From Caldisericia bacterium (lineage in GTDB: Bacteria > Caldisericota > Caldisericia > JAAYUI01), in NCBI GenBank assembly GCA_963674785.1, contig OY771555.1, positions 352,001 to 416,000 of the forward strand: DNA of 64,000 nt. Reading direction: 5' to 3'. The notes under the pieces are model-generated. The model was given only the letters and a program-made list of their open reading frames with translations. It did not search any database and was not told the origin of the DNA. This document shows, one piece after another, positions 55,162 to 64,000 of this stretch. The position numbers and the translations under genes were made by a program. Positions within the stretch are counted from its first letter, which is position 1, and every line of letters starts with the position of its first letter.

Positions 55162-55527
55162 CTACTTTGCATCACAATCCCACTTGAAGATACCAACCAA
55201 ATTATCCTCGGTATCCTTGAAATATGCTGAGTACCCGATTCCAGGGATTGGCATGATCTCAGAAACCATAGTCCCTCCGGCTTCCTTGATTTTTTCAATC
55301 GACTCTTCCATGTTGGCAACCGAAATAACAACATTGTTTGCCATTCCAGGCTCACGCCTCATAATAGCACCATCTATCCCAGGTTCTTCCTTTTCTCCGG
55401 TTGTGCAAAGCCAATAGTCAGCCTCACCACCCCATTTTCCGATTTCCCAGCCAAAGACTGTTTCATAGAATTTCACAGCTCTTTCGGGATCATCTGCGGT
55501 AAGCTCAAAATGATTTACTTTTGCCAT
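55162..55527 (-). CDS. VOC/glyoxalase family protein
   Basis: HFEL..DDPERAVKFYETVFGW...IPGIG..AYFKDTEDN; AGGAG SD. Confidence 0.9.
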   Translation of the reverse strand: MAKVNHFELTADDPERAVKFYETVFGWEIGKWGGEADYWLCTTGEKEEPGIDGAIMRREPGMANNVVISVANMEESIEKIKEAGGTMVSEIMPIPGIGYSAYFKDTEDNLVGIFKWDCDAK

Positions 55528-55532
55528 ATCAA

Positions 55533-55901
55533 TTATTCTCCTTTTTTCAAACTCTTTTTCATAAACCAAGTTATTAAAAACAATACACCGAGGATTAGAA
55601 ATATTGTGATAATCCAACCAGAAAAGAATTTTCCTGAGGATATCATGTTTGTGATAACGAAAATAAGATAGCCTGATAGAACAACAATTCCTGCAAGAAG
55701 CTCATGAAACCAAAAGACAACAAGCCCCATAATCATCATACCCATCCCAACAAACATTACGATCTCACTTACTGTCAGACCAACTGGCCACCCCTCAACC
55801 TCAAAGGCTCCTACAAAAAACAGGCACATAAAAATAAACATTATGGCTGCAAGAACTCTCAGTATCCACTTTATCAAATTTACAATCAATCTCTTGTCCA
55901 C
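55533..55901 (-). CDS. 4-TM hypothetical membrane protein
   Basis: Four hydrophobic segments; GGGG SD before GTG. Confidence 0.75.
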   Translation of the reverse strand: MDKRLIVNLIKWILRVLAAIMFIFMCLFFVGAFEVEGWPVGLTVSEIVMFVGMGMMIMGLVVFWFHELLAGIVVLSGYLIFVITNMISSGKFFSGWIITIFLILGVLFLITWFMKKSLKKGE

Positions 55902-56006
55902 TTTATACCCCCGTACGTATCACCGATTCTAGCTGCAATATTAATATAAGTCAATTTGAATGATTCCTTTATTTCAAAACTTACAAATGAGTATAAAGTA
56001 GCAGAT

Positions 56007-57266
56007 GTGAAGGGGATAGGATATTTTATAGTAGCCTGGGGAGTGATTCTCCTTTTTGGATGCAATTCACCGTTTGTTTCGGTCGATCTATGTATTGAAA
56101 CTGTTCCCCCGGGGGCATCAATAATTGTTGAAGGGAAAACGCTTGGGAAAACTCCCAAAACAATCGATGTGAGATCAAACGATTCTGTCACTGTTTCTTT
56201 ATCAGGATACAAGGTCGAAACAATAAGCCCAAAAGAAACATCAGCTCCGAGAACATACAAGTTCATTGAGCTGAAGAAATTACACAAAATTTATCTTGAC
56301 TACAAACCGAGAGGTTCGAAGGTCTACAATTCTGACGACTCATTCCTCGGAACAACACCATGTGAGGTTGAAATGACTCGAGGGGAAAAAACCGTCTCTG
56401 TAAAATTCCCATATCATGAGGATTACATCGATTCATTCGTTGTCACAGGTTCGGGTATGAGAACTGAGGAGCTTGTTCCAACAGTTAAGTATTTCCCAGA
56501 GACATACTGTAATATAACAACAACTCCAGAGGGTGCTTCCGTAAAATCACTGGTTGCATGCGGAGAAAAACTGTTGGGTGAATTTGATGAATGGGGTTTG
56601 ACACCAGTTAAAGGAACTAACTCTGACGTGATGGAAGCAAAATGTGACAGAGTATTTTTCATAAGTCACGAATCAAAATATCCAGCGGTATTGAGATTCA
56701 GAGGAAGCATCAATACAAACTTAGAACTGGCAGACAAAAAAAACATCAATATCCCAGATTTACCAGACAAGACACCACAGAATCTTGAGTTTAAAAGAGG
56801 AATATTTGAAGATGGAAACCAACCCTTCAAAGCTGTTTTTGAAGGCAATTTCTTCAAAATTATCTCAACAAAGTACTTTGTTCCTGTTGAGATAATCGAC
56901 CTTAGAACTGATAAATCAGATATTTCTGGTGCAAGTTGGTTTGATGAGAGATTCTTTATTGTCAGATTTAAAAGTGGCGAAGGTGACACAAAATACTTGA
57001 TTTACGATTCAAAAGAAAGAAGAAGAGTCTCTTTTGACAATTTTGGTCTCTATCATGAAAGGAACATCCCAGGAATCATAAGATGGAAAGAACAGATTCC
57101 TACAAGTCCAACAAGAGTAAATGAGTTTTTTGACATAAGATATTCAGAAAATAATGATGGTTTGTTTTTCTTCCTGAAACTCTATTCAGGAGCTGGTTGC
57201 TGGCTTGTAATAAAGACCGATTTTGAGATAAGCAGTTCACAACTTGTTGATATTTTGTTCCAGTAG
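56007..57266 (+). CDS. PEGA-domain lipoprotein
   Basis: Lipobox LFGC; 'TVPPGASI..LGKTP', 'LGTTP' and 'TPEGASV..GLTP' repeats; GTG 56007 preferred as start. Confidence 0.8.
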   Translation: MKGIGYFIVAWGVILLFGCNSPFVSVDLCIETVPPGASIIVEGKTLGKTPKTIDVRSNDSVTVSLSGYKVETISPKETSAPRTYKFIELKKLHKIYLDYKPRGSKVYNSDDSFLGTTPCEVEMTRGEKTVSVKFPYHEDYIDSFVVTGSGMRTEELVPTVKYFPETYCNITTTPEGASVKSLVACGEKLLGEFDEWGLTPVKGTNSDVMEAKCDRVFFISHESKYPAVLRFRGSINTNLELADKKNINIPDLPDKTPQNLEFKRGIFEDGNQPFKAVFEGNFFKIISTKYFVPVEIIDLRTDKSDISGASWFDERFFIVRFKSGEGDTKYLIYDSKERRRVSFDNFGLYHERNIPGIIRWKEQIPTSPTRVNEFFDIRYSENNDGLFFFLKLYSGAGCWLVIKTDFEISSSQLVDILFQ

Positions 57267-57270
57267 GCTA

Positions 57271-57298
57271 TTGCACCACTTGACTAGGATGCTATACT
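57271..57298 (+). promoter_or_regulatory. Sigma70 promoter with extended -10, probably driving a leaderless mRNA
   Basis: TTGCAC-16-(TG.)TATACT, 6 nt before GTG 57305, no SD. Confidence 0.6.
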
Positions 57299-57304
57299 CA
57301 TTGC

Positions 57305-59650
57305 GTGAAATCCTTTGCTAGATTATCTTTTATTGTCTTTCTTGTGGCTTTGTTGGCTCTGCCACTCACTACAATAGCTGCATCTAGTATCAAGATGACA
57401 ATCGAGTGTAACCCACAGGCAATCGACATCGATCAATCGACAGAGGTATTTATAACTCTCAAAGATGATGAAGGAAAACCAGTTGTTGGACAAAACATCT
57501 TTGTCGGCGTAACTGGCATAAAAGGTGCCTTCAGTTTTGAGATGCTCACAACAGGTTCTGAAGGAACTGCATCAACAACCTTCACCCCGCAAGAATATGG
57601 AATGGGTTATATCATAGCAAAAGCAAGCATCAGACATGGGACTTCGATTCTTTCAATCACAGCAGAAACAACAATAAAAGTTGACAACATGAACAAACCC
57701 CCAACTTCAAAGATCACAAACGCATTCCCTAACCCTGTTTCAATTGGAGAGACAATTCAGTTTTCCGGTGAAGGTGACGATATTGATGGGAAGGTCACAG
57801 AGTGGAAATGGGATATGGGAGACGGAACGGTCTTTACAGGGACAGGAGACAGTTCATCGGTCACCCACATATATGAAAAAGTCGGAGACTACAAAGTCAC
57901 ATTCATGGTAAAAGATAACTCCGATATCTGGTCAAATCCATCCTGGGTAACCATCAAGGCTTATACAAACAATGCACCACAGATCGCAAAAGTTGGAGAA
58001 TGGGAGACCTCTGCTTTAACAGGACACGAGATTACCATCTCTGCACTCATCACCGACCCTGATTCAAATCTTTCAAAATGCATCTTTGATTGGGGAGACA
58101 ACACAACAGAAGAATTTGATATCACTGGTGGAAGCGCAACACTAAAATCAACCCACAAGTACGATAAGACAGGCATCTATTACCTAAAAATACAGGCGGC
58201 TGACTTAAATGGTGGTACAACAATATACCCAGAAGAAGGTTGGAAAATAAATGTTTATGGCATGTCAAAGGGCGGAATAAAGATTCTCTTCCCAGATTCT
58301 GCTGGTGAACAGATTGATTTTATTGGACCTTTCCCAAGCAGAGACATTGCACTTTCAAAAACTCTTGAGGATTGGGGGCTGGATACAGGATTCACACTAC
58401 TCCCTGGCAAATACAAATTATTATCTGGAAATCGCACATCTGCATTGAGACCAATTACTGGAGAGATTGAGATAAAGCCTTTCAAAACAAGTGAGATAAA
58501 GTGTATCAGATGGACTCCGAAACTCGCAACACATATTTTTATAAACGGCAAGAATCCAGCAAAAATTATTGGGAAATTCTATGATACTGATGGGGATATT
58601 GAAAAACCTGCACTCATAAATATCTCAAATGAAAACAATATCGATGGAATATGCTTTAGTGCAAACAATGGCAATTTTACAATTCCAGCAGAGGGGCTTG
58701 AAGAAAGCAACATCAAAATAAAATTTGTGATTGACGGGATTATTGGAGAAAAAATTCTGCATATCCCAAAAGAACTCCCAAACATAAAACTCACAGCCAG
58801 ACCACAGGTGGATGGTTGCATCCAATTGGATGTTGCCGCAGAAGGAATCGACAGCAAAATCAATCTTACCGCAAGTGTTTTCTCCGTTGTCACAGGCAGA
58901 AGAATAAAATCGAATGATGTAATAAATGATATCCCCACCGAATGCACCCCTGGAATCACAAAACTTGAAATCAATCGATTTGATTCATACAAATATATTG
59001 TCCGAATCGATGCAACACACACTAGCAACAACATAACATCCACAGACCACACAAGTTTCGTTCCTTATATCGGTGATCAGAAACTTCATCTGGACTGGGG
59101 ATATTCGGATGATTCAATCGTTTACAGCGGTTACCTCACAAGCAAAGAATCTGGTGAAATTCTCACCGACCAACAATTTGTGGTTTCAAAAGATGGCAAT
59201 TATTTTGGGAAGATCCCAACAAAAAATGGTCTTTTTCTTGAGGAAAAAAATGTTTCAGAATTGCTGAAATCCAGTGATAATGGACTCGAACTAAAAATAT
59301 CCACTATCTCTTCCGGACTCACATTTGAAGAGAAGATGTTTGTCAGGCATCATGACTTTTATCCAAACCTCGAGATAAAAAGAGGCGAAAACGGCTTATC
59401 ATTCACCCTGCTTGATGGTTATGGTGAACCGATTCCAGGCAAATGGATATCCGTACACTTCATCTCAAAAAATGGAATTGTTACCGAAAAAGAGTGTGAG
59501 ATGCTGGGATATCCTGACTCGAGCGTCCGAACATCAATAAACGGGGCTGCAAACTTCACCTTTGATGACAGCGAATTCCAGGAACTCAGCATCCTTATAA
59601 AAACAAATGTTGATGATTATCCTATCTTGAAGCATTTCAAGATAAAGTAG
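57305..59650 (+). CDS. Secreted Ig-like (Big_1) + PKD domain protein
   Basis: Signal peptide; 'TLKDDEGKPV'; 'WKWDMGDG...HIYEKVGDY'; 'FDWGD...HKYDKTGIY'. Confidence 0.85.
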   Translation: MKSFARLSFIVFLVALLALPLTTIAASSIKMTIECNPQAIDIDQSTEVFITLKDDEGKPVVGQNIFVGVTGIKGAFSFEMLTTGSEGTASTTFTPQEYGMGYIIAKASIRHGTSILSITAETTIKVDNMNKPPTSKITNAFPNPVSIGETIQFSGEGDDIDGKVTEWKWDMGDGTVFTGTGDSSSVTHIYEKVGDYKVTFMVKDNSDIWSNPSWVTIKAYTNNAPQIAKVGEWETSALTGHEITISALITDPDSNLSKCIFDWGDNTTEEFDITGGSATLKSTHKYDKTGIYYLKIQAADLNGGTTIYPEEGWKINVYGMSKGGIKILFPDSAGEQIDFIGPFPSRDIALSKTLEDWGLDTGFTLLPGKYKLLSGNRTSALRPITGEIEIKPFKTSEIKCIRWTPKLATHIFINGKNPAKIIGKFYDTDGDIEKPALINISNENNIDGICFSANNGNFTIPAEGLEESNIKIKFVIDGIIGEKILHIPKELPNIKLTARPQVDGCIQLDVAAEGIDSKINLTASVFSVVTGRRIKSNDVINDIPTECTPGITKLEINRFDSYKYIVRIDATHTSNNITSTDHTSFVPYIGDQKLHLDWGYSDDSIVYSGYLTSKESGEILTDQQFVVSKDGNYFGKIPTKNGLFLEEKNVSELLKSSDNGLELKISTISSGLTFEEKMFVRHHDFYPNLEIKRGENGLSFTLLDGYGEPIPGKWISVHFISKNGIVTEKECEMLGYPDSSVRTSINGAANFTFDDSEFQELSILIKTNVDDYPILKHFKIK

Positions 59651-59677: not shown

Positions 59678-59735
59678 TTGACACGGGTTTCTTATTTCAT
59701 TATCATTGAGCGTATACTCAATGAGTGGGTACTCA
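59678..59735 (+). promoter_or_regulatory. Promoter plus two tandem TetR-type operators
   Basis: TTGACA-17-TATCAT, then TGAG-CGTATA-CTCA and TGAG-TGGGTA-CTCA. Confidence 0.7.
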
Positions 59736-60326
59736 ATGAATAAAAGGGAACAACAAAAACTAGAGACAAAAGAGAAGATCATCGACATAGCAACAAACCT
59801 ATTCTCAGAAAATGGTTTCTCAGAGGTTTCCACTCTTGATGTCGCAAAAAAAGCTGGTGTCTCACACGGAACAATCTTTTCACATTTCAAATCCCGCGAT
59901 GAGTTGATTTTTGCGGTTGTTGAAAGATTCAGTGCAAAGCTTCTAACTCGAATTAACACCCTCATGTCTGAGGACATGTCACTAAAAGAAATAATCACAA
60001 TCCATCTTTCAAGTCTGCTTGATTATGAGGACTTCTATAGAGAACTGATAATCGTATCACCAAGGCTCACCGGTAGAGCAAAAAACCAGTACATCTTCCT
60101 GATGTCTTCAATTTCAGAAATAATCAGCTGCGCCAAGGAAGAACAAACGAAACTTGAACCAAACGCGATTTTTACAACATGGGTTTCACTGCTTCACTAC
60201 CACCTCACAAGTCGACCACTCTTTTCACCTGGTGAATCCGTGATCGAGAAAAAAGGCAAGGAGATAAAAAAACTTTTTATGAGCCTTGTGATGGATAAAA
60301 AAGAAATGGAGGGACAAAATGAATAA
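59736..60326 (+). CDS. TetR/AcrR family regulator
   Basis: 'IIDIATNLFSENGF...VAKKAGVSHGTIFSHFKSRDEL'; start is 59721 or 59736. Confidence 0.92.
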   Translation: MNKREQQKLETKEKIIDIATNLFSENGFSEVSTLDVAKKAGVSHGTIFSHFKSRDELIFAVVERFSAKLLTRINTLMSEDMSLKEIITIHLSSLLDYEDFYRELIIVSPRLTGRAKNQYIFLMSSISEIISCAKEEQTKLEPNAIFTTWVSLLHYHLTSRPLFSPGESVIEKKGKEIKKLFMSLVMDKKEMEGQNE

Positions 60327-62158
60327 ATGCAGGTCGTGTGGAAGGATGCTCAAGGCAGATGAACAGGGGAAAGATTTCTGCAAGCATTGTGTAGATGAGA
60401 ACGGGAGTCTCAAGTCGTACGAACAGGTATCAGAAAATCTTGCAAAATACCTGAGAGAGACACAAGGGCTAGATGAGAGGGCATCGGCCAACGCTGCAAA
60501 AGCAATTGTTTCAAGCCAACCGGTCTGGGAGAAGAAACAGGGAGTATATTTTGAAGGGGATATGAAAAGAAAGAGAAACACAATTGTTACGTTAGTTGTT
60601 GTGTTTGCATTAATTTTGACGGGGGTTGGGATTGGGGTATTTGTTTTTGATAAACCTGAGGAGCAGTTAGCAGAATCAAAGCTTTTTGATAAAGAAAACC
60701 CATTAGTCATAAATAAAACAGTAGGTCATAACACATATATGTTGGATTTACCAGGATATCAATCCAACCCCTCTGTCATAAACCTAGCCAATGAAGGCTC
60801 TGACAAAAAGAATGATGCAATAATTTTCGCATCATATGTGAGACCCCAGAAGACTGATAGGCAAATTGAGCCCGAAGATGAGTACAAACTATTGAGAGTC
60901 AAGATTTCAGATGAAGGAAGCAAGGGGAAAGGTGTAATCTTAAAAACAGAGAAATTAGTCTCTGATAGATATGAGAAAAACTCAAGATTTTTCTTCCTTA
61001 GAACTAAAAACTCTGAGGAAAGTGTTTACACATATGATTCTCTGTTTAATAATCAGAGATATGGTGAAAACAGTGCACCTTTCAAATGGGAACCAGTCAC
61101 AAAGCCATATCACCCGCAATACTCAGTACTTGATGAACACATGAATGAAGATACATACTACCAAGTTAATGATGAATATATAATGTGGTGTGAGTTTGAC
61201 AAGAAATCATCAAGCCAGAGCCTGTATCTCAGAAACTTTGACACACTCAGAACAATTGAGATAAGTAAAACTGTTGCCCCTTACACAAAACCACTTCTTC
61301 TAGCAAACCACATCGTATGGGAAGATAATAGAGAAATATCAAGCAAGTCATGTGCGATATATTCATATAACATTTCGTCGGATAGTGAGAAGCTACTTCA
61401 TCACTCGGATAAAAATGTTGCACTCCTTAAGAGCAAAAATCCAAGCTTCATTCTTTTTGTAACCTATGCTGATGATATTAGAAGTTATGGCAATCCCGAC
61501 TATACTCTCAATATTTACAACCTGATAAAATCAAAGGTTGAATATTCATTTAATGATGAAATAAGAATTGGCGAGACTGGGCTTGGTAACTACAGCAGAC
61601 ACTTGCCGAAAGTATGTATCTCTGAAAATCCAAAGAACCCAATTGTGACCTGGGGAATCATGAAGAAATACGAGGGTGGTTATTGTTTTGGGAAGGGAAG
61701 AAAACTAGTTGATGACAGTTGATGACAGAGAAGGTATCGCAATCCTCAAAGTTGGCGTTGATAAAGAACCCTTCATAATAGAGAAACTTGAAGAGCATCT
61801 CAATATGAATCCTGTTTTTGTTACAGATGAATACGTGATTATTGATAATAGGTGGGAATTCAGAATCGCTAAAATTCCAGAAAACTATGAGCAGCCAAAG
61901 TTAGTCAAAATTTTTGAGCCAATCAAGGAATATATCGATCTTAACTTCAAGATAAATATCGATAAAGATTTCATTTTTTGGAAAGTTCTAACGCACAGAA
62001 AATCAGAGCCTGGAGAAGATAAAGTCAGAAGTATTGGTGGAATAGAAGTGGTGTATGAGGGAGGGACATATGAGATTCAAACAGGCTCAAACATCTGCTG
62101 GGCAAGGTTATCTGAAATTTTTCCAGAGCATGAACTAGTGGGAGCGATGGGAGAGTAA
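60319..62158 (+). pseudogene. Zn-ribbon-TM-extracellular domain gene split by a 10-bp tandem duplication (ORFs 60319..61722 and 61709..62158)
   Basis: AGTTGATGAC x2 at 61707..61726; deleting one copy fuses the frames; the end SNICWARLSEIF matches the paralog's SNICWAVLSNIF. Confidence 0.8.
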
Positions 62159-62160
62159 GT

Positions 62161-63984
62161 ATGAAAAAATGTGCTTCCTGTGGAAAAATCATTAAAGGGG
62201 AGGCTGGGGAGAAGTATTGCCGCAACTGTGTGGATGAGAATGGGAATCTCAAGTCGTACGAACAGGTATCGGAAAATCTTGCAAAATACCTGAGGGACAC
62301 ACAGGGGTTGGATGCCCGGGCATCCATCAATGCTGCAAAAGCTATTGTTTCAAGCCAACCGGTCTGGGAGAAGAAACAGGGAGTATATTTTGAAGGGGAC
62401 ATGAAGAGGAGCAGGAGGTTAGTTGTCTCTCTTATCGTTATTATCGCGCTTATTCTGGCTGGGATTGGGATAAACTTTTATGAAAATTTTTTGGGGAATA
62501 AGGAGTTACCACTTTTATCTGGGGGTGAATCGCAAAAGGTGAACACAAGGAATGTTGGGGACGTTCGTGTAAAAGAGCTCATGTTGCCTGGGTCACAAAA
62601 CTGCCCCAAGCAACTTTACGAGCATGACCAAAATATTATTTGTTTTACATCACCGCGATTCAGTAAAAGTGGTAACTGGCTTAAAAAAACCGATCTTTAC
62701 GGGTTTAACACACACAACAATCATGGTTTCAAATTGACTTTTGATATCAAACAATTTACAAAAGTTGCATCATCATATTTCCCTGAAAGTGTTGATACAA
62801 CAATGAGTTCGACACATTTCACAAGAGACGGGATGTGGATTACAACAACAAGAAACACCGATAAAAACGGTGACAAATGGGGCATCAAAGCCGTAACAGC
62901 AAGCATTGATGTGAAGCATTTTTATCCAGAACTCTTCCCAACCGCTGACACCACAAAAGAGCTTGGTTTTTACAGACACTACAACAACTTCATAAAGAAG
63001 GAAGCAAACTGGTTAAACCTTTACTTCCTGGAAAAAAGGCAAAACATTCACTACCCGATTTTGCTTGATGGTTATATCACCTGGTTTGAAAATGATGATT
63101 CTGAATACGGATTCCCAAACATCAAAAGAATTGTTTTATACAACCTCCATACTGAGAGAGAAATCACTGTAACAGAGACGGTTTTTAATGATTATTACAA
63201 GCTGAATGACAGGTTTATTGTCTGGCTTGATAACCGCAAGATAAACGCCCCCGCACCATCTATATATTGTTATGACATAAAAAGTGGTGAAGAGTTTGTG
63301 GTTTATGAAAATGTTCACTCTCAATATTTCACTTTCAATGATTCATACATAATCTTTTCTAAGGATGACAATACCAACTTGCACTTAGTCTATGATCTGA
63401 ACAATCGAAAACTCACAAACAAACACCTCACAAAAAATATCTATCAAGAACCAAGAATGTCTGACAACAACAATGATTATGATTATAAACCCGAAAATCT
63501 CAGAACATCAAGAATCAAGATGTCAAAAGGTTCAGAAAACAAAGATTCATTCATCGCATACAGCGAAATCGAAGGTGAAGAAGAATCGTACGAGGGTTTT
63601 AAAGGGAGGAAGTTAAAAGTTTTTGTCGAAAACATCTCAAAAGATAATGAGGTTTACGAAGTATATGGAGATGATGAAAGTATTTCTGTCCAGGTTCCCC
63701 TTAAAATCACAGATGACTTCGTCATATGGCAGAGTCTTAACTATGAAACCTACACCAACAACCTCTGGATAGGAAGAATCTCTGACGGACAACACGATGG
63801 AATAATAGAATCTGTCCTTATTGACACATCAGCTTTTGAGGAAAACACATTCCCACACTTGAATTTTGGGGATGTTGAGGTAACCGAAAAAAAGGTCTTT
63901 TGGACAAAAACCGATACGAATTCAAATATCTGCTGGGCAGTATTATCAAACATATTTAAGGTGGGAAATAATGAAAAAATGTGA
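62161..63984 (+). CDS. Zn-ribbon (CxxC..CxxC, PF12674-like) + TM + extracellular beta-propeller-like protein
   Basis: CASCG..YCRNCVDENG..QPVW head, a TM helix, then 'IVWLDNR...IYCYDI' repeats. Confidence 0.8.
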   Translation: MKKCASCGKIIKGEAGEKYCRNCVDENGNLKSYEQVSENLAKYLRDTQGLDARASINAAKAIVSSQPVWEKKQGVYFEGDMKRSRRLVVSLIVIIALILAGIGINFYENFLGNKELPLLSGGESQKVNTRNVGDVRVKELMLPGSQNCPKQLYEHDQNIICFTSPRFSKSGNWLKKTDLYGFNTHNNHGFKLTFDIKQFTKVASSYFPESVDTTMSSTHFTRDGMWITTTRNTDKNGDKWGIKAVTASIDVKHFYPELFPTADTTKELGFYRHYNNFIKKEANWLNLYFLEKRQNIHYPILLDGYITWFENDDSEYGFPNIKRIVLYNLHTEREITVTETVFNDYYKLNDRFIVWLDNRKINAPAPSIYCYDIKSGEEFVVYENVHSQYFTFNDSYIIFSKDDNTNLHLVYDLNNRKLTNKHLTKNIYQEPRMSDNNNDYDYKPENLRTSRIKMSKGSENKDSFIAYSEIEGEEESYEGFKGRKLKVFVENISKDNEVYEVYGDDESISVQVPLKITDDFVIWQSLNYETYTNNLWIGRISDGQHDGIIESVLIDTSAFEENTFPHLNFGDVEVTEKKVFWTKTDTNSNICWAVLSNIFKVGNNEKM

Positions 63985-64000
63985 TTCTTGTGGAAGAATA
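63971..64000 (+). CDS. Start of a third Zn-ribbon paralog (partial)
   Basis: ATG AAA AAA TGT GAT TCT TGT GGA AGA ATA = MKKCDSCGRI, overlapping the upstream stop. Confidence 0.7.
   Translation, partial: MKKCDSCGRI

Follow-up and report, generated by a model that had tools for sequence, protein, structure and literature searches.

A TetR-led operon of zinc-ribbon membrane proteins whose heads evolve in concert and whose divergent outer domains are predicted to be beta-propellers

We analyzed a 64,000-nucleotide stretch of DNA, here called the window, which comprises bases 352001 to 416000 of a single 2.23-Mb contig with a G+C content of 39%. Near its right-hand end, the gene of a TetR-type regulator (tetR) is followed by three paralogous zinc-ribbon genes (g1, g2 and g3), and these four genes form one operon, driven from a promoter of the sigma-70 type that carries operator palindromes of the TetR type. 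All three paralogues are predicted to cross the membrane once, with a small cytoplasmic zinc-ribbon head on one side and a beta-propeller outside the cytoplasmic membrane. Within a lineage, gene conversion or module exchange has kept the heads similar, whereas the outer domains are ancient and have diverged from one another. The TetR subfamily together with the head makes up a conserved module that is found as adjacent genes in other phyla, is fused in some proteins and uses one type of operator. We propose that the heads may act as protein partners of their cognate TetR. All positions are given in window numbering, and the labels for genomes (G), loci (L) and proteins (P) are those of our analysis.

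Layout of the operon and architecture of its products

The features of the locus are as follows (ORF, open reading frame; aa, amino acids).

59678 to 59706, plus strand: promoter, with the -35 box TTGACA at 59678 to 59683, a 17-nucleotide spacer and the -10 box TATCAT at 59701 to 59706.
59703 to 59735, plus strand: two adjoining predicted operator palindromes, TTGAGCGTATACTCAA at 59706 to 59721 and TGAGTGGGTACTCA at 59722 to 59735, lying directly after the -10 box and reaching the start of tetR.
59706 to 60326, plus strand: ORF of tetR, 196 aa from the likely start ATG 59736 (59736 to 60326), with alternative starts at ATG 59720 and TTG 59706.
60319 to 62158, plus strand: g1, starting MNKCRSCG and read as two ORFs (60319 to 61722 and 61709 to 62158), with the membrane helix at aa 86 to 113.
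60505 to 60560 in g1 and 62344 to 62399 in g2, plus strand: identical 56-bp tract encoding the end of the head (IVSSQPVWEKKQGVYFEGD).
61707 to 61716 and 61717 to 61726, plus strand: 10-bp tandem duplication, AGTTGATGAC twice, which frameshifts g1.
62161 to 63984, plus strand: g2, 607 aa, intact, starting MKKCASCG, with the head at aa 1 to about 82, the helix at aa 83 to 111 and the outer domain at aa ~112 to 607.
63971 to 65722, plus strand: g3, 583 aa, starting MKKCDSCG, a full paralogue that runs past the end of the window at 64000 and was read from the whole genome.

The first-pass annotation, which was made from the letters of the window, had described a tetR gene followed by at least three tightly coupled genes opening with M-x-K-C-x-S-C-G. 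All of these elements are present. Extension along the contig revealed that the ORF at 63971 is a true member of the family and that the array has exactly three members, since the next gene after g3 lies on the opposite strand. The junctions are tight, with an 8-bp overlap between tetR and g1, a 2-bp gap between g1 and g2 and a 14-bp overlap between g2 and g3. The tetR product matches PF00440 over residues 25 to 71 at 56 bits (cut-off, 24; E = 3.4e-15), which places it in the TetR/AcrR family. Full-length relatives of g2 with 37 to 41% identity exist in two genomes of the same genus, and a word-index protein search with g2 returned four proteins only, three of which were g2, the g1 fragment and g3 of the same genome.

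In a scan of 6.6 kb, this promoter matched the sigma-70 pattern best, at 11 of 12 positions, and related loci likewise have a TTGACA-type -35 box and a -10 box ahead of their TetR genes. Of 17 regions inspected upstream of related TetR genes, 15 display the same layout, and for L022 and L030 the stretch inspected stopped at the operator start. As is often the case in the TetR family, the window's tetR has, at the level of sequence, a palindromic operator at its own promoter, and to judge from the operator position, the operon would be repressed by its own TetR. Immediately upstream of the TetR promoter, a tRNA-like sequence was recognized by eye in three genomes of the genus, at loci with a free TetR and head pair (L026, L029 and L030).

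In all 28 family members compared, one hydrophobic helix is present at about residues 75 to 120, with a K/R-rich stretch before it. The number of lysine and arginine residues flanking this helix averages 6.0 on the N-terminal side and 2.0 on the C-terminal side, and it is higher on the N-terminal side in 27 of the 28 members. This positive-inside bias places the head in the cytoplasm, consistent with the arrangement of zinc-ribbon head, transmembrane helix and large ectodomain that had been suggested from the window alone. The same order of parts emerged when g3 was modelled with AlphaFold from 21 relatives: a zinc ribbon and three helices, a long membrane helix at 74 to 110 and then an all-beta domain. 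The overall predicted local distance difference test (pLDDT) score was 70.9, the head blocks scoring 69 to 89 (mostly 81 to 89) and the 10-residue blocks from residue 281 onward 48 to 93 (most above 75). A Foldseek search with the modelled outer domain of g3 retrieved 2gop (E = 4.4e-9), TolB (7mx5; E = 9.9e-8), tricorn (1k32) and acylaminoacyl peptidases, matches that hold at the level of fold only. On this model, the outer domain is a predicted beta-propeller of the TolB, tricorn or peptidase-propeller type. By sequence, named propeller families were not reached, TIGR04275 (beta_prop_Msarc) scoring 21.1 bits against a cut-off of 85 and no Pfam family, PD40 included, giving a match. Apart from DUF5050 at 0.88, an ESM Atlas search with the outer domain of g2 retrieved clusters that were unnamed or WD40-like, all of them no more than leads.

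The head of about 85 aa is, by its sequence relatives, a divergent form of PF12674 (Zn_ribbon_2, "Putative zinc ribbon domain"). Such a resemblance had been noted in the first-pass annotation and holds through relatives and profiles, though the window's own heads lie below the Pfam gathering cut-off of 22.5 bits: g1 reached 16.2 bits (E = 0.017), and no match was obtained for g2 at E <= 0.1 or for g3 at E <= 0.01. At E <= 0.01, PF12674 was matched by 11 of 21 family members, and the orthologous heads in G002, G003, G005, G007 and G009 exceed the cut-off with 23.3 to 34 bits. The heads also carry the hallmark of PF12674, namely, two CxxC pairs and a helical part that ends in P-A-W; in 82 aligned sequences, C4, C7, C20, C23 and W69 are invariant, with conservation of at least 90% for G8, G28 and P67. 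Searching 1.84 billion representatives with a profile of 29 heads yielded 563 proteins at E <= 0.001, among them proteins of about 80 aa with E values down to 1e-19. Among the best 150 of these 563 matches, 87 are at most 110 aa long, 40 (including 34 of at least 450 aa) continue from the head into a membrane helix, and 23 have other forms; PF12674 was detected in 18 of the 25 longer or fused matches that were scanned. Free and TetR-fused homologues of the head are devoid of the membrane helix.

Modelled alone from the 82 sequences, the head again gave a zinc ribbon with three helices (pLDDT, 87.7). Searched against the sequences of solved structures, the head profile found a designed helical repeat as its best match (E = 5.8e-4), in which the individual stretches were not significant. 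The heads are mostly mildly acidic, with an isoelectric point (pI) below 7 in 63 of 82 and a median pI of 5.55, a charge more in keeping with binding to protein than to DNA. Neither helix-turn-helix nor winged-helix families, as would be expected of ToxR/CadC-type proteins, were found in the 21 members. zf-HC2/ZAS and RsgI_N gave no Pfam match to the window proteins (E <= 0.1) or to the 21 members (E <= 0.01), and the neighboring regulator is a TetR. A reading of the locus as a defense system was rejected, as PADLOC returned no families at E <= 0.01 for TetR, both pieces of g1, g2 and g3.

The first gene of the array is broken. An intact relative of 589 aa (P0004) aligns to frame 1 of g1 over aa 1 to 444 and then to frame 2 over aa 458 to 589, and the SNICWA motif of g1 consequently lies in the second ORF, because the 10-bp duplication shifts the frame. 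The letters of the duplication are identical in contigs from two DNA runs of one sample, no RNA run with this sequence being listed; this sample is probably the source of the assembly, and the agreement therefore lends weak independent support. A second split copy was seen at L020:3330-5076 (G007:C11), where an ORF for an 85-aa head is followed by one of 472 aa, upstream of an intact paralogue of 520 aa.

Heads evolve in concert beside divergent outer domains

Identity between the three paralogues is uneven along their length, as the following protein comparisons illustrate.

g1 and g2: head 79%, membrane helix 50%, outer part 27%.
g1 and g3: head 74%, membrane helix 77%, outer part 52%.
g2 and g3: head 77%, membrane helix 61%, outer part 30%.

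The shared head of g1 and g2, including the 56-bp identical stretch, had been pointed out in the first-pass annotation and was verified here. By simple arithmetic, an identical run of this length has a chance of about 6e-5 at a nucleotide identity of about 76%. The abrupt divergence of the genes into ectodomains that keep only sparse motifs, also described there, stands in part: the unevenness is real, but only g2 is strongly divergent, with g1 and g3 being about 58% identical over 450 aligned residues, and the SNICWA motif assigned to g1 belongs to its second ORF. The proportion of synonymous differences (pS) within the window was 0.53 to 0.61 for the heads versus 0.77 to 0.82, that is, saturation, for the outer parts. 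Homogenization is therefore moderate in the window, and it is much stronger in relatives: genes 1 and 2 of L015 are identical in DNA over head and helix while their outer domains are 32% identical, and in L019, L017 and L016 the synonymous divergence (dS) of the heads is 0.05 to 0.10 beside saturated outer parts.

Heads and outer domains also differ in their nearest relatives. The outer domain of g2 is closest to genes of G003 (35 to 37%, versus 31% for G002 and 27 to 30% for its own neighbors), whereas its head is closest to those of its own neighbors (77 to 79% versus 63 to 66%), and one protein, P0015, combines a head of the G003 type with an outer domain of the g1/g3 type. In the tree of outer domains, g1, g3, P0004 and P0015 form a clade with support of 100/100. 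In the tree of heads, P0015 groups with G003, with support of 94/97 after de-duplication and 97/97 in the tree in which four of the eight rows of this clade are exact duplicates. Approximately unbiased (AU) tests agreed, with the outer-domain data rejecting the head grouping (p = 1.76e-5) and the head data rejecting the outer-domain grouping (p = 3.5e-4), although these p-values are somewhat weakened because the groups were named after the identity matrix was known. We thus conclude from the discordant trees, and from DNA-identical heads beside saturated outer domains, that the heads evolve in concert. This contrast bears out the earlier view of homogenized heads with diversified outer domains, and growth of the array by tandem duplication, suggested at the same time, is likewise supported.

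Genes with the full head, helix and propeller arrangement were present in G000, G002, G003, G005, G007 and G009, which belong to the two genera labeled g1 and g3 (genus labels, distinct from the gene names) of the window's family. With the queries used, such genes were found neither in the genus labeled g2 (0 of 4) nor in the other 82 searched genomes of the phylum, and G001, a member of the same genus, has a free head only. A comparison of array content across relatives, which the first-pass annotation had recommended, revealed that arrays contain one to five genes and that the types of outer domain vary. The proteins range from 515 to 921 aa, with outer domains of 470 to 500 aa in the window and about 800 aa in some relatives, and the largest array, L015 (G009:C3:24000-43000), has five genes of 536 to 921 aa (trimmed) with one TetR. 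A further head/helix/outer-domain protein of 617 aa, P0099, had only head-only matches across 93 genomes of the phylum. The membrane-anchored form is a local elaboration in two genera of one family, probably of the Caldisericota.

Pairing of the head with one TetR subfamily

Of 14 array loci, 13 have a TetR gene directly upstream on the same strand, and the remaining one (L016) has a further ORF upstream, 47 bases beyond which its contig ends. The window genome holds a second array (C1:104195-108076), with its own TetR upstream, and a free head of 81 aa (C1:165024-165269), also with a TetR upstream; a free 81-aa head follows a TetR of the same subfamily in all four genomes of the genus. Seventeen TetRs, the window's and 16 others that precede zinc-ribbon genes, align over their full length and share conserved C-terminal motifs (alignment A3). 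The three sets of TetR and head in the window genome have diverged from one another, with TetRs 28 to 37% identical, heads 33 to 44% identical and different operator half-sites. Within arrays, by comparison, head identity is 74 to 100% in nine of ten.

The pairing extends well beyond this phylum. From an alignment of nine free PF12674 proteins (A4), we collected 80 loci of other phyla, the subgroup being chosen by a sequence motif and not by context. The same TetR subfamily was encoded upstream on the same strand in 78 of these 80 loci, which come from Bacillota, Spirochaetia and methanogens, and in 59 it lay within 150 bp. RefSeq labels one such pair as TetR/AcrR and "zinc ribbon domain-containing protein," and cultured species of Clostridium (such as C. 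estertheticum), Paenibacillus and Acetobacterium carry the simple pair. A perfect TGAGT-N4-ACTCA or TGACT-N4-AGTCA palindrome was located at the TetR start in 54 of the 74 other-phyla loci with a full-scoring TetR, and the cross-phylum operator consensus, AATGAGT-N4-ACTCAAT, matches the second operator of the window. In at least two clusters, TetR_N and Zn_ribbon_2 are fused in one protein. One is represented by P0069 (291 aa) and has five members, all from separate contigs; the other is represented by P0124 (282 aa). The TetR parts of both match the A3 profile over 189 to 198 columns with a probability of 99.4 to 99.6%.

We also surveyed the neighbors of the other-phyla pairs (L038 to L117). 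Of 86 ORFs extracted from these loci, 69 were scanned, after visual removal of 17 that were probably shadow ORFs. In these loci, mostly of Bacillota, small genes often lie after the pair or interleaved with it, and the scanned ORFs included 21 with TfoX_C, 18 with CMD (AhpD-like), two with AhpC and one glyoxalase. Eleven small ORFs (64 to 83 aa) beside other-phyla pairs share a CYGHLGG motif and match no Pfam family.

Possible role of the heads and competing explanations

The fusions, the near-universal adjacency, the three diverged sets of TetR, head and operator and the mildly acidic heads lead us to infer a partnership between head and TetR. In the resulting proposal, which we consider plausible without quite calling it probable, each head would be a partner protein for the TetR of its own set, to which the outer domains would relay signals in a manner reminiscent of anti-sigma factors. 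The head would bind TetR as an anti-repressor or co-repressor, the propellers would be the sensors, and their state would set how much TetR is free to occupy the operator, in an arrangement like that of a sigma factor held by its membrane anti-sigma factor. With several receptors acting on one repressor, the lasting similarity of the heads would be explained. A wider version, which is possible but which we regard as rather doubtful, would make PF12674 the dedicated ligand (anti-repressor or co-repressor) of a TetR subfamily spread across phyla, including some archaea. In one lineage, probably Caldisericota, this ligand would have been wired through the membrane to propeller receptors that converge on one repressor, with gene conversion keeping their heads compatible; this would be the first transmembrane route into a TetR-family repressor.

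Several observations speak against such a partnership. Since g1 is broken, one copy must be dispensable. A genome search for exact palindromes found only the three TetR promoters and one site inside a hydrogenase gene (genome position 614516), degenerate sites being outside this search; no downstream regulon is thus visible among exact palindromes, and a signal would feed back on the operon alone. The five genes under one TetR in L015 fall into three head classes that are only 56 to 67% identical. TetR identity and head identity are correlated (r = 0.79, 136 locus pairs), but co-inheritance by itself would produce such a correlation. Within the phylum, no TetR is adjacent to 7 of 11 free PF12674 copies, four of which, 80-aa copies in another family (L033 to L036 in G087 to G090), directly follow dnaG-rpoD (e.g., L034:605-4252, the one locus for which this context was confirmed with Pfam), so that the domain has a second setting that is linked to transcription. 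One E. coli copy of PF12674 follows a methyltransferase gene, and in four proteins (P0097, P0105, P0109 and P0111) PF12674 is fused to a glyoxalase/bleomycin-resistance domain. PF12674 is therefore not exclusively a TetR partner. Finally, the head model had no clear fold relative among 48,161 solved chains (best Z, 4.4).

The main competing explanation, unlikely in our judgment yet a serious contender, is an ordinary TetR-controlled effector operon, in which TetR would sense a small molecule and the zinc-ribbon proteins would be effectors (in stress, redox or xenobiotic responses) that make no contact with TetR, here in the form of envelope propeller proteins anchored by a conserved head. This is the usual logic of TetR loci, as in TetR/TetA and AcrR/AcrAB, and it would suit both the confinement of exact operators to the promoters of the system itself, bar the hydrogenase-gene site, and the small stress-type genes (TfoX_C, CMD, AhpC and glyoxalase) that often accompany the pairs in other phyla, as well as the glyoxalase fusions. 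It accounts less readily for the two clusters of TetR-PF12674 fusions, since repressors are commonly fused to a partner or sensor and unusually to their own regulated product. Nor does a zinc ribbon of 80 aa with three helices and no evident catalytic or transport function look like an effector, and the three mutually diverged sets of TetR and head in one genome have the appearance of cognate pairs.

We consider it improbable that the head is instead a thiol/zinc switch for redox or electrophile signals, comparable to RsrA and other zinc-containing anti-sigma factors, in which oxidation or alkylation of cysteines would free zinc and alter the hold on TetR, with the outer domain only localizing the protein or adding a second input. 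The four invariant cysteines in two CxxC pairs would allow this, and the CMD, AhpC and glyoxalase neighbors in other phyla, the glyoxalase fusions and a glyoxalase/Ble-like gene about 4 kb upstream of the operon (55162 to 55614, minus strand) would be in keeping with it; zinc ribbons are, however, usually purely structural, the neighboring genes vary and are missing from many loci, and the window's operon itself contains none of them. Least probable, in our view, is a role as variable proteins of the envelope that serve in adhesion, in substrate capture or in varying the surface, so that diversity across the array would be its purpose, with TetR as a local switch and the conserved 5' end reflecting mere recombination between copies. 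An old, conserved head with invariant residues, which has free and TetR-fused homologues across phyla, is not just a handle for recombination, and no known defense family matches; on the other side stand the copy number of one to five, the differing outer-domain types of related genomes, the split copies here and in G007, and the PEGA, PKD and Big_1 surface-protein genes just upstream.

Regulators of the TetR family are among the commonest bacterial repressors, and to our knowledge almost all known ones answer to small molecules. Protein ligands occur in AmtR/GlnK, SlmA/FtsZ and DhaS/DhaQ. These resemble the arrangement proposed here, from gene order and fusions, in that a protein partner sets the activity of a TetR-type regulator; their partners are, however, unrelated to PF12674, are not membrane receptors and do not form tandem arrays behind the regulator. 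In BlaR1/BlaI and MecR1/MecI, the repressor is controlled by a membrane sensor from the same operon, which binds its ligand through an outer domain. BlaR1 acts through a cytoplasmic HExxH zinc protease, whereas the heads described here are small structural zinc ribbons, and no HExxH was found in the first 90 residues of g1, g2 and g3. The nearest likeness is to the free pairs of an ~80-aa PF12674 protein and TetR/AcrR, which share with the window the two CxxC pairs, the P-A-W ending, the TetR subfamily and the operator type; compared with these, the window proteins add a membrane helix and a propeller of 470 to 500 aa, occur in tandem arrays of one to five and have heads below the Pfam cut-off.

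The closest parallel in architecture is RsgI/SigI of Clostridium thermocellum, in which membrane anti-sigma factors carry varied sensor domains (PMC10328401, PMC6582324, PMC12203970). RsgI proteins likewise are reported to be paralogous single-pass proteins with a small conserved cytoplasmic N-domain and a varied outer domain, encoded beside their regulator, and the N-domain holds the transcription factor. The partner in our case would be a TetR repressor rather than a sigma factor, several proteins would share one regulator where RsgI proteins have one each, and by Pfam search the heads show no relation to RsgI_N or zf-HC2. A membrane-tethered partner of a transcription factor, as proposed here, is of a kind already known, and it would rest on a widespread and uncharacterized TetR/PF12674 module.

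A literature search within the library available found no paper naming PF12674 or Zn_ribbon_2, and no published description of the system was found, in agreement with the first-pass annotation, which had not recognized it as a described one. If the heads are indeed conserved protein partners of TetR, this would be a new and widespread mode of control for TetR regulators and would provide the first function for this Pfam domain. The membrane-anchored arrays would then illustrate the coupling of a cytoplasmic switch to sensors on the outside, paralleling anti-sigma systems. For the evolution of bacterial gene arrays, the conflict between the trees of heads and outer domains is a clean example of modular and concerted change.

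The operon is immediately preceded by two surface-type genes (55956 to 59650, plus strand), encoding a PEGA protein of 436 aa and a protein of 781 aa with one Big_1 and two PKD domains. Any relation of the more distant glyoxalase/Ble-like gene to the operon is putative.

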